DNA of 64,000 bases, taken from positions 47,460 to 111,459 of the forward strand of contig JAAXUA010000004.1 of the NCBI GenBank assembly GCA_013336275.1, given 5' to 3'. The stretch is from Candidatus Falkowbacteria bacterium (lineage in GTDB: Bacteria; Patescibacteriota; Patescibacteriia; Patescibacteriales; GWE2-39-37). The translations under genes and the position numbers were made by a program. Below are positions 17,200 to 43,860 of this stretch, in pieces; the stretch's first letter is position 1; the number at the start of each line of letters is the position of its first letter. The notes below the pieces were generated by a model. The model was not told where the DNA came from, searched no databases, and saw only the letters and a list, made by a program, of their open reading frames with translations.

Positions 17200-17871
17200 T
17201 CAGAACTGCAAGCTTCTTACGGTATCGACGATTTCTTTGACAGGGGGATCGGGCGGAAAGCCGTCCATCGACCCATGCGCCCGCCTGAGGTGGGCGACGA
17301 TCAGCAGCATGGCGGTTTCTTCGCCGTAAACCTTCGACACGGTCGCGTAGGCCTCGATGCCGTCGATCTCCACCAGCCTGGCAGCCTCATTCATCTCCTC
17401 GATCGACAATACCAGTTTTTCGTTGAGACGCTCCCTGATTTTCATCAGCCGGGAACAGAATTCCTCTTCCGTCAGCACGGTCTTGGCCGGATCGGCTTCG
17501 CCGATGCTGTGCCTTAGGACCTCATTGCCGGTCGCCAGCAAGGCGCGGACAAAATCGGTATTTTGGGACAGCGCCGCAAAAGCGCGATCCAACAGCTCCT
17601 GATATGCGGCAGAACTTCTCGGATACTCCTTGCCTTTCCACCACAAAGTCTGAGCGGATTGCCAGACCGGGTTCCTTTCGGTCCCGATCATTTTGGCTAC
17701 CCTGCCCTTGAACTGGCAGATGAGCACCTGAGTTTCAGGGTTCTCGAACTTGAAAGCCTGCAATAGCGCTTCCATGCAGCCGCATTCCACGCCATCGAAC
17801 AGGAAGGCGTATGCCCTGAAATTGGACAAATCGCCTGCCACACCTTTCATGTCGCCTCGGATATCAATCAT
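17200..17871 (-). CDS. NADAR (YbiA/DUF1768)-like domain protein with a ~70-aa C-terminal extension
   Basis: By-eye alignment to E. coli YbiA: GDLSNF..FDG...E..LQAFKF.., ..AKMIG..R and F..ALLATG..VL.H. It is a paralog of 20178-20780. Confidence 0.5.
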   Translation of the reverse strand: MIDIRGDMKGVAGDLSNFRAYAFLFDGVECGCMEALLQAFKFENPETQVLICQFKGRVAKMIGTERNPVWQSAQTLWWKGKEYPRSSAAYQELLDRAFAALSQNTDFVRALLATGNEVLRHSIGEADPAKTVLTEEEFCSRLMKIRERLNEKLVLSIEEMNEAARLVEIDGIEAYATVSKVYGEETAMLLIVAHLRRAHGSMDGFPPDPPVKEIVDTVRSLQF

Positions 17872-20177: not shown

Positions 20178-20780
20178 TCAAGCCTTTCCGTGGCACACCC
20201 TCTCATGTTCCTGCGCCATTTCCGACTTGATGCGGTTTCCGCACGCCTCGCAGATGTAGCAGCAAGGAGCGAAATGCATCATCCCTGAATCTTTGTCGTG
20301 GCATGAACAGCCGCATTGATAAAGAAAAATAATGCTGCATCTCAGCTGCATCAGCCTGAAGCAGAATTCTTCCTCAGTCAGGATGTCTTCGTTCGGATCA
20401 GCTACGCCTATCGAGTGAGTCAGGACTTCAGTTCCCGTATCCCAGAGGGCCTTCCGGTAACTTTCATTCTGAATAAATAGAGCGGCATAGGCCCTGTCGA
20501 GCAATTCCTGATATTCCTGGCCGTGGCGATCATATGTTTTGCCGCGCCAGTTCAATTCGTGCTTGCCCTGCTTCCAGGTCTCAATTCGCTCAAGTCCGAA
20601 TCGCTTAGCCTCGATGCCGACCAGCTTGCACACCGACTCCTGCAGTGCCAGGTCGTCAGTCAGCAAAGACTGCAGAAAACCTTCCATCGAAGCGCACAAG
20701 ACGCCATCCAAGTAGAAGAAGTAGGCGGCGAAGTTGGTCAAGGCGCCAGCCGGGTAAGGCAATTTTGATTTGATCTCCAT
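20178..20780 (-). CDS. NADAR-like domain protein with a Cys-rich C-terminal tail
   Basis: Clear paralog of 17200-17871 (LTNFAAY..LDGV..SMEG; YQELLDRAYAAL; TGTEVLTHSIGVADP..ILTEEEFC). The tail is CGCSCHDKDSG..CCYICEACGN..CHG. Confidence 0.5.
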   Translation of the reverse strand: MEIKSKLPYPAGALTNFAAYFFYLDGVLCASMEGFLQSLLTDDLALQESVCKLVGIEAKRFGLERIETWKQGKHELNWRGKTYDRHGQEYQELLDRAYAALFIQNESYRKALWDTGTEVLTHSIGVADPNEDILTEEEFCFRLMQLRCSIIFLYQCGCSCHDKDSGMMHFAPCCYICEACGNRIKSEMAQEHERVCHGKA

Positions 20781-20826
20781 AAATCCTCCACTAAGGTCGG
20801 GATAAAAATCCGGTATTCATCTGCGC

Positions 20827-21138
20827 CTACCCGGTAAACGACTTCAAGTAAACATCGTACCAATCCGTACCGCTGCCCACGAGCACCTCGGTCCTCGCAC
20901 CGTTCTTCCTAGCTAGGAAGAAAACCTGCTTCGTGTAGTCGAAGCTTGGGACAGGCTCGCAGATCAAGGTGACCTGCTCGCCAACCTGCAATTGGGCAGC
21001 CGCTTTTTTGCTTGTGGTAAAGAAAAACTTACCACCCTGCTCCTTGACCATGTACTCACGGCCTTCATCTTTGGTAATTTCTCCAATCACGACCGTCACT
21101 ACTGCGACAACAATCGAACTGCAATTTTTAATGACCAT
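20827..21138 (-). CDS. hypothetical small protein with an N-terminal hydrophobic segment
   Basis: 103-aa ORF with SSIVVAVVTVVIG. It lies 46 nt upstream of NADAR-like gene 2 on the same strand. Confidence 0.5.
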   Translation of the reverse strand: MVIKNCSSIVVAVVTVVIGEITKDEGREYMVKEQGGKFFFTTSKKAAAQLQVGEQVTLICEPVPSFDYTKQVFFLARKNGARTEVLVGSGTDWYDVYLKSFTG

Positions 21139-21236
21139 GACTCAATCTCCTTTGTGATAGTTATTTTTTACAACTAGCTTAGTTTAAGGAAAATTTGATT
21201 TTATACCATAACACATTACTATTATTTTGTCCATCA

Positions 21237-21425
21237 TGCCCCATTAGGACAGGAGCTCACGCCTCACCAGTCCGCCGTCGCGGGCTGGTTCGTTGCCCTG
21301 GGCAGCGCAGAAGTGATTCCCATCACTTCTGCGGCGCTCGACTGCGATGTTGCTCTGGTGAGCAACATCTTGCTCACTGCTGCCCGCCTGCCTGCCGGTA
21401 GGCAGGTTCGAGTCCCATTCCAAAA
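21237..21425 (+). ncRNA. candidate structured RNA of unknown class (array of perfect hairpins)
   Basis: Four hairpins: 21267-21288 (9 bp), 21306-21333 (12 bp), 21346-21369 (10 bp) and 21391-21406 (6 bp), with a terminator immediately 3'. The only ORFs here are mutually antisense and implausible. Strand is assigned from a single T-G wobble. Confidence 0.3.
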
Positions 21426-21426
21426 T

Positions 21427-21474
21427 CAATAATAAAAAGGAGCACTTCTGACGAAGTGCTCCTTTTTATTATTG
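21427..21474. terminator. perfect 22-bp inverted repeat (loop TGAC) acting as a bidirectional terminator
   Basis: CAATAATAAAAAGGAGCACTTC / GAAGTGCTCCTTTTTATTATTG. The GC-rich inner stem has U-runs in both orientations. Confidence 0.7.
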
Positions 21475-21546
21475 GCTCGGGGATAGGGACTCTCACCGGG
21501 GCGGAAGCCCCACGCCTCACGCATTAGTTTTCTTTCGGCCCTATCC
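21475..21546 (-). other. orphan tRNA-Gln 3'-end fragment embedded in a ~66-nt stem-loop with a GGGGC-TTCC-GCCCC hairpin
   Basis: An 18-nt exact copy of 21591-21608. An 8-bp closing stem pairs 21481-21488 with 21539-21546. The 16-mer at 21498-21513 is identical to 43621-43636. Confidence 0.6.
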
Positions 21547-21558
21547 ACAAACAAAACA

Positions 21559-21584
21559 AAATCAGCCCCAGAAGGGACTGATTT
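21559..21584 (-). terminator. terminator hairpin trailing tRNA-Gln
   Basis: AAATCAG(T)CCC-TTCT-GGG(G)CTGATTT followed by a T-run on the minus strand. Confidence 0.65.
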
Positions 21585-21591
21585 CATTTTG

Positions 21592-21662
21592 CTCGGGGAT
21601 AGGGACTCGAACCCCAATTGACGGGACCAGAACCCGCTGTCCTACCATTAGACGATCCCCGA
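21592..21662 (-). tRNA. tRNA-Gln (anticodon CUG)
   Basis: Hand-folded: acceptor TCGGGGA/TCCCCGA, D arm GTCT-AATGGTA-GGAC, anticodon arm GCGGG-TTCTGGT-CCCGT, T arm TGGGG-TTCGAGT-CCCTA, discriminator G. CCA is not encoded. Confidence 0.85.
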
Positions 21663-21724
21663 ATATATGCATTTTTTCAATACAAAAAGGCGGTTAAGCC
21701 TTGTTTGCTATTGTAACCGAATTA

Positions 21725-32096: not shown

Positions 32097-32135
32097 AAAA
32101 AAGCCCGTCTCTTCCAAGAGACGGGCTCATTTTTT
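32097..32135. terminator. bidirectional terminator (AGCCCGTCTC/GAGACGGGCT)
   Basis: Read from the sequence, between convergent genes. Confidence 0.8.
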
Positions 32136-43597: not shown

Positions 43598-43685
43598 TTG
43601 TGCGCCCACAAGGACTCGAAGGGGCGGAAGCCCCACACCACCGAAAGGTGACACAGTATTATATATTTTTTTAACCAATAAGCAA
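43598..43685 (-). ncRNA. candidate small RNA unit: promoter, then GGGGC-TTCC-GCCCC hairpin, then orphan tRNA-Lys 3'-end copy, followed by a terminator hairpin at 43557-43603
   Basis: Minus strand: TTGCTT (43685-43680), N16, TATAAT (43663-43658). The 23-nt stretch 43598-43620 is identical to 43785-43807. A 21-bp terminator hairpin lies at 43557-43603. Confidence 0.45.
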
Positions 43686-43787
43686 AAAGCACATTTCGAT
43701 ATTCTGAAACGTTCCTTTTACAAGATTCTCGAAGCTTATAAACCCACAAAATAAATCAGACCCCGAAATGGGGTCTGATTTATTTTG

Positions 43788-43860
43788 TGCGCCCACAAGG
43801 ACTCGAACCTTGGACCTTGTCCTTAAAAGGGACCTGCTCTACCAACTGAGCTATGGGCGC
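43788..43860 (-). tRNA. tRNA-Lys (anticodon UUU)
   Basis: Hand-folded: acceptor GCGCCCA/TGGGCGC, D arm GCTC-AGTTGGTA-GAGC, anticodon loop CTTTTAA, T arm CAAGG-TTCGAGT-CCTTG, discriminator A. CCA is not encoded. Confidence 0.88.

Follow-up and report, generated by a model that had tools for sequence, protein, structure and literature searches.

In Escherichia coli, tRNA-linked repeats (TLRs; Egan and Landy 1978) occur in 22 copies at ten loci, and their function is mostly unassigned (PMC8144298). [quoted passage not shown] RrA, RrB, and RrF have been studied, and the TLRs that follow three rRNA operons are flanked by dual terminators and expressed by read-through (PMC8144298). tRNA and tmRNA genes are also targets of genomic islands, which become tandem by accretion and some of which lack integration genes and are cis-mobilizable elements (PMC3146451, PMC5704250). 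In this study, we analyzed a 189-nt array of hairpins beside a tRNA-Gln gene in a 64-kb stretch (the window, to which positions refer) of contig JAAXUA010000004.1 from Candidatus Falkowbacteria, a member of the Candidate Phyla Radiation (CPR). The array is real and non-coding, and its shape is maintained by evolution. It is the structured core of a module of ∼235 bp that lacks open reading frames (ORFs) and flanks the tRNA gene on its 3' side. The module is best filed as a variant of the tRNA-linked repeats or T-loop insertion modules and not as a free-standing new RNA class. Elements of this kind are known from E. coli, are little studied, and have not previously been described in these groundwater CPR bacteria.

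The Falkowbacteria unit can be likened to the E. coli TLRs by architecture, and its host is a CPR bacterium. Like the TLRs, it lacks ORFs and lies immediately downstream of the upstream gene (tRNA or rRNA in E. coli) in the same operon orientation, as seen in the window and in the related loci L014 and L013; an L followed by a number designates a locus compared with the window. A terminal repeat of the upstream gene's 3' end is 18-19 bp long in E. coli and 17 bp long in the arrays of L014 and L013 and in the B unit of the window. Both kinds of units can occur in tandem at one locus, and the position between two terminators that is known for the rRNA-linked TLRs is also seen in L013. The Falkowbacteria unit is unlike the TLRs in that an inverted copy of the T-loop region pairs with the direct copy and closes the structure, and in that a conserved, covarying core with a three-way junction is found behind two tRNAs, with flanks matched to each. 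Read-through expression was shown for the E. coli TLRs, whereas we infer it for the Falkowbacteria unit.

Homologues of the array came from three sources: a 20-nt exact search of metagenomes from the Joint Genome Institute (JGI), homologues of a 103-amino-acid (aa) protein encoded next to the array, and the covariance model R1. The exact search gave two true homologues, L014 and L013, plus three chance matches, and the 103-aa protein led to a third copy in L010, which is cut by the contig end. Arrays identical to that of L014 are present in two other samples (L031 and L032), and the contigs of L028 and L034 stop short of the array. R1 scored the window, L013, and L014/L031/L032 at 144-152 bits and the truncated L010 copy at 57 bits, and detected no further copies in the rest of the window or at any other locus searched. 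Homologous arrays were found in just three other organisms, and three of the core sequences are complete and independent. The core is 83-87% identical between genomes. When comparing the window with L014, we observed 86% identity in the core, 80% in the patatin and dnaX genes, and 78% in T1, a terminator that is present at this position in all homologues and is poorly conserved in sequence.

Conservation outside this genome, on which the preliminary description of the array had made its case depend, is accompanied by covarying base pairs. A 27-nt stretch (TTCGTTGCCCTGGGCAGCGCAGAAGTG) and the tip of hairpin H3 (GCTCTGGTGAGC) are invariant, and substitutions in the stems come in pairs. Pairing is maintained in 96.7% of 123 alignment cells (four helices, 38 pairs), with 3 mismatched cells in H1 over four aligned sequences, and both sides have changed in 6 of the 38 stem pairs, two in H1 and four in H3. 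This level of two-sided change and pairing was matched by 1 of 500 shuffles, and slid-partner controls were paired in 28-56% of cases. The alignment masks a seventh compensatory change in L014, where H2 has C-G instead of A-T at its top.

The hairpins form the series listed in the preliminary description, with H1 extended to 10 bp at 21266-21289 (formerly 9 bp, 21267-21288). On the plus strand, the 189-nt segment has a folding energy of -95.9 kcal/mol compared with -68.0 ± 4.1 kcal/mol for shuffled sequences (z-score -6.9), and on the minus strand it has -92.1 kcal/mol (z-score -4.3). No shuffled sequence folded as well on either strand, and the homologues gave z-scores of -4.6 to -8.0. There are ∼16 distinct perfect hairpins of at least 9 bp in the 64-kb window (0-1 in shuffles); nearly all of them are A/T-flanked terminators, with H2 and H3 among the few exceptions. 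A further GC-rich perfect hairpin not of the A/T-flanked terminator type (11 bp, AGCCCGTCTC TTCC AAGAGACGGGCT) is located at 32102-32127.

For either strand, RNAalifold predicted that a helix called Pmid closes a three-way junction with H2 and H3, that H1 lies outside this junction, and that an outer helix joins both ends of the array. Pmid is invariant in every copy, so that covariation neither supports nor contradicts this helix. A 6-bp hairpin at 21292-21306 had been considered possible earlier; it was predicted on the plus strand only, where it competes with the invariant long-range helix (21300-21305/21380-21385). The sequence CTCACCAG before and in H1 (21263-21270) is complementary to CTGGTGAG in the loop and 3' stem of H3 (21355-21362) over 8 bp in the window; the complementarity shrinks to 6 bp in L014 and to 5 bp in L013. 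The two segments are part of invariant sequence and could form a pseudoknot or an alternative pairing. The view of the 190-nt segment as one RNA had to be abandoned: its ends are copies of the tRNA-Gln 3' end, H4 is an insertion, and the conserved core covers only 21260-21386. The 20-nt insertion with H4 is not present in L013 and L014, where GCTGCCCG directly abuts TTCGA.

We then compared the flanks of the core with the neighbouring tRNA genes. Read on the minus strand, the order of elements in the window is tRNA-Gln, terminator T2, B unit (the 'orphan-tRNA element' of the preliminary description), T1, the inverted copy of the T-loop and 3' stem, the core, and the direct 17-nt copy of the tRNA 3' end. 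The order is the same in L014, and L013 has tRNA-Glu, T1, and the array. The sequence GGTTCGAGTCCC at 21405-21416 indeed corresponds to the T-loop region of tRNA-Gln in inverted orientation, and the 22-bp bidirectional terminator said to follow the segment is T1. In plus orientation, the L014 array opens with GCTCGGGGATAGGGACT, which is identical at 17 of 17 positions to the reverse complement of the tRNA-Gln 3' end and occurs in three direct copies in this locus, at the end of the array, in the B unit, and in tRNA-Gln itself. The L013 core is located beside tRNA-Glu(CTC); the array opens with GTAGCGCTACGGGGAAT, a 17/17 match to the tRNA-Glu 3' end, and closes with GTTCGATTCCCCGTA, the inverted T-loop and 3' stem of tRNA-Glu. 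Hence, both arms match the local tRNA in L014 and L013 and therefore track the neighbouring tRNA. In the Gln as well as the Glu copies, the repeat of the tRNA 3' end starts at T-loop position ∼58 and reaches position 74. Pairing between the arms, which closes the fold, involves 9 of 11 positions in L014 and 10 of 10 in L013. The window copy has a decayed outer repeat in addition to the extra 20-nt hairpin insertion: the B unit of the window retains 17/17 identity to the upstream tRNA, as do the outer ends in L014 and L013, whereas the outer tRNA copy of the array has diverged in the window (21239-21257), and also in L010, which weakens the closing helix without compensation.

The array and the B unit are units of one design, which agrees with the link that had been drawn from the 10-mer CACGCCTCAC at both 21258-21267 and 21511-21520. 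CGCCTCAC is present in every array copy and also in the neighbouring unit, with one substitution in one relative. The window genome has a second B-type tRNA-linked unit after tRNA-Lys (43602-43634). There, the last 19 nt of tRNA-Lys (43787-43860, minus strand) are repeated (43602-43620 and 43789-43807), and the repeat is fused to GGGGCGGAAGCCCC (43621-43634), a hairpin as in the tRNA-Gln B unit. A similar terminator (CACAAA(A)TAAAAT...) precedes each copy of the tRNA-Lys 3' end.

The tRNA end, the terminator (T1 or T2), and the inverted copy together make up one long imperfect palindrome, with arms of 31-35 nt that are 81-83% complementary. Extension of palindromes by template switching is a mutational mechanism that could yield the inverted arms. 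Quasi-palindrome extension of this type would resemble the present arrangement in that the inverted tRNA copies are exactly beyond the terminator hairpins T1 and T2, but it accounts neither for the origin of the core nor for its conservation.

Comparison of related loci revealed empty and occupied sites. In L027, whose patatin is 80% identical, tRNA-Gln is followed directly by a terminator, CCACGCGATGAGCGCAGCGAATTTTGCGTGG (CCACGC...GCGTGG), without a unit. In L003, the terminator of the L027 type has moved outward and follows a 17-nt copy of the tRNA 3' end; an insert of ∼150 nt lies in between, and a new terminator is present beside the tRNA. The two loci therefore point to the entry of a small insert at T-loop position ∼58 that supplied a new 3' end and displaced the native end and terminator outward. 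As far as sequence comparison goes, they show the arrival of the B-type unit by insertion into the T-loop of tRNA-Gln. Identical position and repeat limits at Gln and Glu suggest that the array likewise inserted into the T-loop, although none of the loci compared showed a clean empty site for the array itself. The core has been lost in L004, where only the last 47 nt are left, and in L012, which keeps only TCGAGTCCCATTCC; both retain the inverted repeat despite this loss. The two deletions have different end points and different genes beyond them, and the region beyond the array is a hot spot of gene flux, with different genes in the window, L004, L012, and L010.

Another type of insert is present in the more distant relative L005 (2745-3090), in which a partial copy of the tRNA-Gln 5' part (position 1 to ∼57, ending in the T-loop) lies ahead of tRNA-Gln. 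Between this copy and tRNA-Gln lies an insert of ∼210 nt, which contains two hairpins of 10 perfect bp and in which a small GIY-YIG-like ORF begins. L005 thus appears to be a mirror-image insertion at the same T-loop position. L027 has an ORF just past the tRNA terminator (1955-2119), which we recognized by eye as GIY-YIG-type from its first residues, MYYVYLLECLDDKSWYIGFTSDLRKR. Judging from L005 and L027, small nuclease genes may be associated with the tRNA-Gln flank.

These dynamics are relevant for the possible, though less than probable, explanation that the module is a miniature or decayed integrative element of the cis-mobilizable type, which acts at the DNA level, uses a recombinase in trans or has lost it, and makes no functional RNA. 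The direct repeats would then be attL and attR, the tandem B and array units would result from accretion, and the hairpins would be signals for recombination or replication, or functionless. The repeat geometry fits well with this explanation. As in islands that target tRNA or tmRNA genes, including tandem and integration-gene-less ones (PMC3146451, PMC5704250), direct repeats of the tRNA 3' end start in the T-loop. T-loop-targeted integrative elements such as the Dehalococcoides ssrA islands also regenerate the gene on insertion, accrete in tandem, in some cases lack integration genes, and have a conserved element-specific motif adjoining the repeat (PMC3146451, PMC5704250). The empty (L027) and occupied (L003) sites, the presence of one core at two tRNAs with flanks matched to each site, the gene flux beyond the array, the lack of a promoter assignable to the array, and the strand-symmetric base-pair statistics are all consistent with an element that acts as DNA. 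However, integrative elements are kilobases long and have, or formerly had, a recombinase and cargo, whereas the Falkowbacteria unit has ∼235 bp and no ORF or remnant: we found no ORF with homologues in the module and no recombinase gene or family in it or within ∼7 kb on either side. The unit also has an extra inverted copy of the target, and its tRNA-like segments differ between copies; an attP carried by an integrase should keep its own tRNA-like segment, whereas here the direct and inverted sides both change from Gln to Glu. No intact T-loop overlap is present at the far junction. Finally, the core is more highly conserved than the adjacent genes and combines paired compensatory changes with invariant unpaired stretches (such as the 27-nt TTCGTTGCCCTGGGCAGCGCAGAAGTG), which is unexpected for a decaying scar.

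The strand from which the core might be transcribed was less clear. RNAalifold gave a consensus of -77 kcal/mol on the minus strand and -70 kcal/mol on the plus strand, and the minus strand gains a junction helix with two covarying pairs and a tandem G·A. Fold energies are slightly better on the minus strand in L013, L014, and the consensus. Three wobbles favour the minus strand (H1 in L010, H3 in L014, and the junction helix in the window) and two favour the plus strand (H1 in the window and H4 in L004). The locus L013 has a canonical terminator directly after the unit on the tRNA strand, so that this unit is flanked by terminators, and it has no promoter-like site on either strand. T1 accompanies all copies, and the minus strand of the window has no terminator beyond the array. 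The flanking genes all run in the direction of the tRNA. Overall, the genomic context appears to favour the minus (tRNA) strand mildly.

The preliminary description had noted that the T·G wobble in H1 pairs only on the plus strand. This wobble results from a window-specific substitution and is T-A in all three homologues, and an assignment to the plus strand found no comparative support. We consider it unlikely that the array is an independent small RNA that starts from a plus-strand promoter near 21167-21223, ends at T1, and carries, in intact copies, a 5' arm that is antisense (17 nt) to the tRNA 3' end. Such an RNA could pair with the neighbouring tRNA or its precursor, and in L013 and L014 the 5' arm matches the tRNA 3' end with perfect complementarity. 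T1 provides a T-run 5-10 nt past the unit on the plus strand in every copy, the window folds best on this strand, and promoter-like hexamers are present upstream (TTTACA-16-GAAAAT at 21167-21194 and, in direct reading, TTGATT-16-TACTAT at 21196-21223). The change in H4 from T-A in the window to T·G in L004 is tolerated on the plus strand only. Against this, no plus-strand promoter upstream of the array is conserved among the homologues, and the plus-strand 5' end of the L013 unit abuts a bidirectional terminator. The antisense arm has decayed in the window and L010, T1 is already explained as the terminator of the tRNA or B unit, and the counts of G·U and A·C are tied, with the C·A mismatches in H1 of L010 and H3 of L014 turning into wobbles only on the minus strand.

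We give an about even chance to the explanation that the array is the core of a tRNA-linked repeat unit and is made as RNA from the tRNA strand by read-through of the terminator. The unit would insert into the T-loop at its middle, regenerate the tRNA 3' end, and push the original 3' end and the native terminator outward. The core would be transcribed together with the tRNA when RNA polymerase reads through the terminator, the two tRNA-derived arms would pair and close the molecule, and the tRNA-like 3' end would provide a site for end processing. The invariant unpaired stretches might serve as the working surface for a putative partner. Transcription, its strand, processing, and any partner are predicted features, whereas the conservation of the core, its covariation, the flanks identical to the local tRNA, and the insertion of the B-type unit are observed.

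Several points weigh against expression of the core from the tRNA strand. T1 is a very strong terminator (22 bp), and read-through may be negligible. Pairing specific to one strand is tied, with 145 of 152 cells on the minus strand and 144 of 152 on the plus strand, and the window sequence by itself folds better on the plus strand. In the window and L010, the outer repeat has decayed and the core is conserved; a tRNA-like 3' end is therefore not essential. Loss of the core in the close relatives L004 and L012 means that it is dispensable. In addition, perfect palindromes can acquire compensatory changes through template-switch correction of the DNA, with no selection acting on an RNA.

A more general and tentative proposal is that miniature gene-less hairpin modules of CPR bacteria form a class of their own and home into the T-loops of tRNA genes, that they move between these genes (Gln, Glu, and perhaps Lys for the B type), and that they copy the 3' end of the target in direct and inverted orientation, regenerate the tRNA, and carry a structured small RNA whose ends mimic the helix of the tRNA acceptor and T arm.

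We next asked whether the array could encode a protein. The two ORFs in the window (21195-21401 on the plus strand and 21244-21429 on the minus strand, 68 and 61 aa) are both open, as would be expected for a short gene or a pseudogene fragment. Neither of them is on record as a called gene or an exact product, and a chimeric query of all six array frames against 5.8 billion proteins had zero matches at E ≤ 1. Stops interrupt the array frames in L013 and L014, and indels shift them. The segment is non-coding, as the preliminary description had proposed. Similarly, a chance cluster of hairpins or a stack of terminators would not account for the compensatory stem changes, for H1-H3 lacking a trailing T-run, or for the failure of every shuffle to fold as well. 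Together, coding and chance explanations are highly improbable.

The array also belongs to no known RNA family, in agreement with the initial motif inspection. At gathering thresholds, Rfam identified only three tRNAs in the whole window, and the same three alone were reported by ARAGORN. Lowering the Rfam threshold to E ≤ 10 for 21100-21720 added just spurious microRNA-type matches to the terminators, and the L013 and L014 loci had no match at E ≤ 1. Neither program matched the array to tmRNA, signal recognition particle (SRP) RNA, RNase P RNA, 6S RNA, Y RNA-like RNAs, small ribozymes, or a group I intron. Intron-containing tRNAs of Patescibacteria have cloverleaf exons around a group I intron in the anticodon loop (PMC13011429); the array has only the T-loop and its 3' strand, and neither strand contains an acceptor partner, a D arm, an anticodon arm, or a group I intron match. 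A retron non-coding RNA would share the closing inverted repeat, yet no reverse transcriptase gene adjoins any of the loci. We considered an omega-RNA of TnpB/IscB or a bridge RNA of IS110 because a structured scaffold adjoins a target-matching segment, and found no cognate gene in the window within ∼7 kb. An insertion of the IS200/IS605 type is also at odds with the 17-nt duplication. In a miniature inverted-repeat transposable element (MITE), the terminal inverted repeats would be its own; here they vary by copy and match the local tRNA, and there is no outer target-site duplication. Searches for a phage or plasmid origin found none in phage or plasmid collections, and IMG/VR gave only nine chance matches to the gapped motif.

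Finding this architecture in a CPR bacterium whose genome is reduced suggests a distribution of tRNA-linked repeats beyond enterobacteria. The clear covariation and invariant single-stranded stretches make the core testable, and the empty and occupied sites together with one core behind two tRNAs indicate how such units may arise, by a mechanism that involves the T-loop and no obvious recombinase. The family is tiny (four organisms) and dispensable in close relatives, and its importance is moderate unless expression and a partner are found. The positions of the features are listed in Table 1.

Table 1. Features of the hairpin array and the adjacent tRNA-Gln locus in the window
Feature	Position	Strand	Description
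Decayed outer direct repeat (DR_A)	21239-21257		Remnant, reverse complement of tRNA-Gln 3' end; 5' arm of closing helix on plus strand
Conserved structured core	21260-21386		127 nt; leader CGCCTCAC, H1, three-way junction (Pmid, H2, H3)
H1 hairpin	21266-21289		10 bp including one T·G, loop CGTC; 2 pairs with compensatory changes (C-G to A-T, A-T to G-C)
Pmid 5' strand, GGGCAG	21300-21305		Pairs with 21380-21385, enclosing H2 and H3; RNAalifold, both strands
H2 hairpin	21306-21333		12 bp, perfect, loop TCCC; stem invariant except for top, where A-T is C-G in L014
H3 hairpin	21346-21369		10 bp, perfect, loop TGGT; compensatory double changes in 4 of 10 pairs (three sequences)
Pmid 3' strand, CTGCCC	21380-21385		RNAalifold, both strands
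20-nt lineage-specific insertion, CCTGCCTGCCGGTAGGCAGG	21387-21406		Holds H4; in window and L004
H4 hairpin	21391-21406		6 bp, loop GGTA
Inverted repeat, GGTTCGAGTCCCATTCC	21405-21421	+	Sense-like tRNA-Gln T-loop, 3' strand of T-stem, start of acceptor; 3' arm of closing helix
T1 terminator	21427-21474		22 bp, perfect, bidirectional; between array unit and B unit
B unit	21475-21547	-	Earlier 'orphan-tRNA element'; 92-95% identical in L014 and L004
B unit direct repeat	21475-21491		tRNA-Gln 3' end, 17 nt; equals 21591-21607
B unit hairpin, GGGGCGGAAGCCCC	21498-21511		Followed by CACGCCTCAC
B unit inverted piece, CCCTATCC	21539-21546
T2 terminator hairpin	21558-21584	-	Directly after tRNA-Gln
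tRNA-Gln (CTG)	21591-21662	-	Anchor gene; repeated sequence is last 17 nt, 21591-21607

The palindromes and repeated tRNA ends fragment assemblies of the array locus. Two independent Logan short-read assemblies (contig ends of L001 and L010) terminate within the H2 palindrome at ∼21326, and a third contig terminates within tRNA-Gln. Hence, apparent tRNA fragments and perfect palindromes beside tRNA genes call for caution, as they break short-read assemblies and mimic orphan tRNAs.

The genes around the array, namely dnaX, a patatin-like gene, tRNA-Gln, the gene of the 103-aa protein, and a GP30.3/NADAR-like gene, are all on the minus strand. The proteins encoded in the neighbourhood assign the window to Candidatus Falkowbacteria. 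The 103-aa protein (family unassigned) and the GP30.3/NADAR-like protein of 200 aa, which has a Cys-rich C-terminal tail, are encoded as a conserved pair in three Falkowbacteria genomes (window, 20178-21138 on the minus strand; L010, 1062-2030; L011, 972-1942). A conserved promoter, TGGACA...TATGGT, lies between the array and the 103-aa gene (21233-21205, minus strand) and is kept in L010 and L011; its variants read TGGACA or TAGACA, followed by TGTTATCGT or TATGGT. L011 has the gene pair without an array, and L013 has the array without the pair. The own promoter of the pair and this uncoupling imply that the array is neither a leader (5' untranslated region) of the 103-aa/NADAR-like operon nor a partner of the two genes. 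Of the neighbours that the preliminary description had suggested for checking, a tRNA gene (Gln or Glu) held up and the NADAR-like genes did not; the constant neighbour is a tRNA gene with a terminator.

The locus L004 (CAYUCS010000001.1, 772 kb) is collinear with the window, with which it shares tRNA-Gln, the B unit, a CSD gene, and a 133-aa gene; identity in patatin amounts to 89%. Given this collinearity with Falkowbacteria, its record title, 'uncultured Gammaproteobacteria bacterium', looks wrong. A second GP30.3 paralogue is encoded in the window at 17200-17871.

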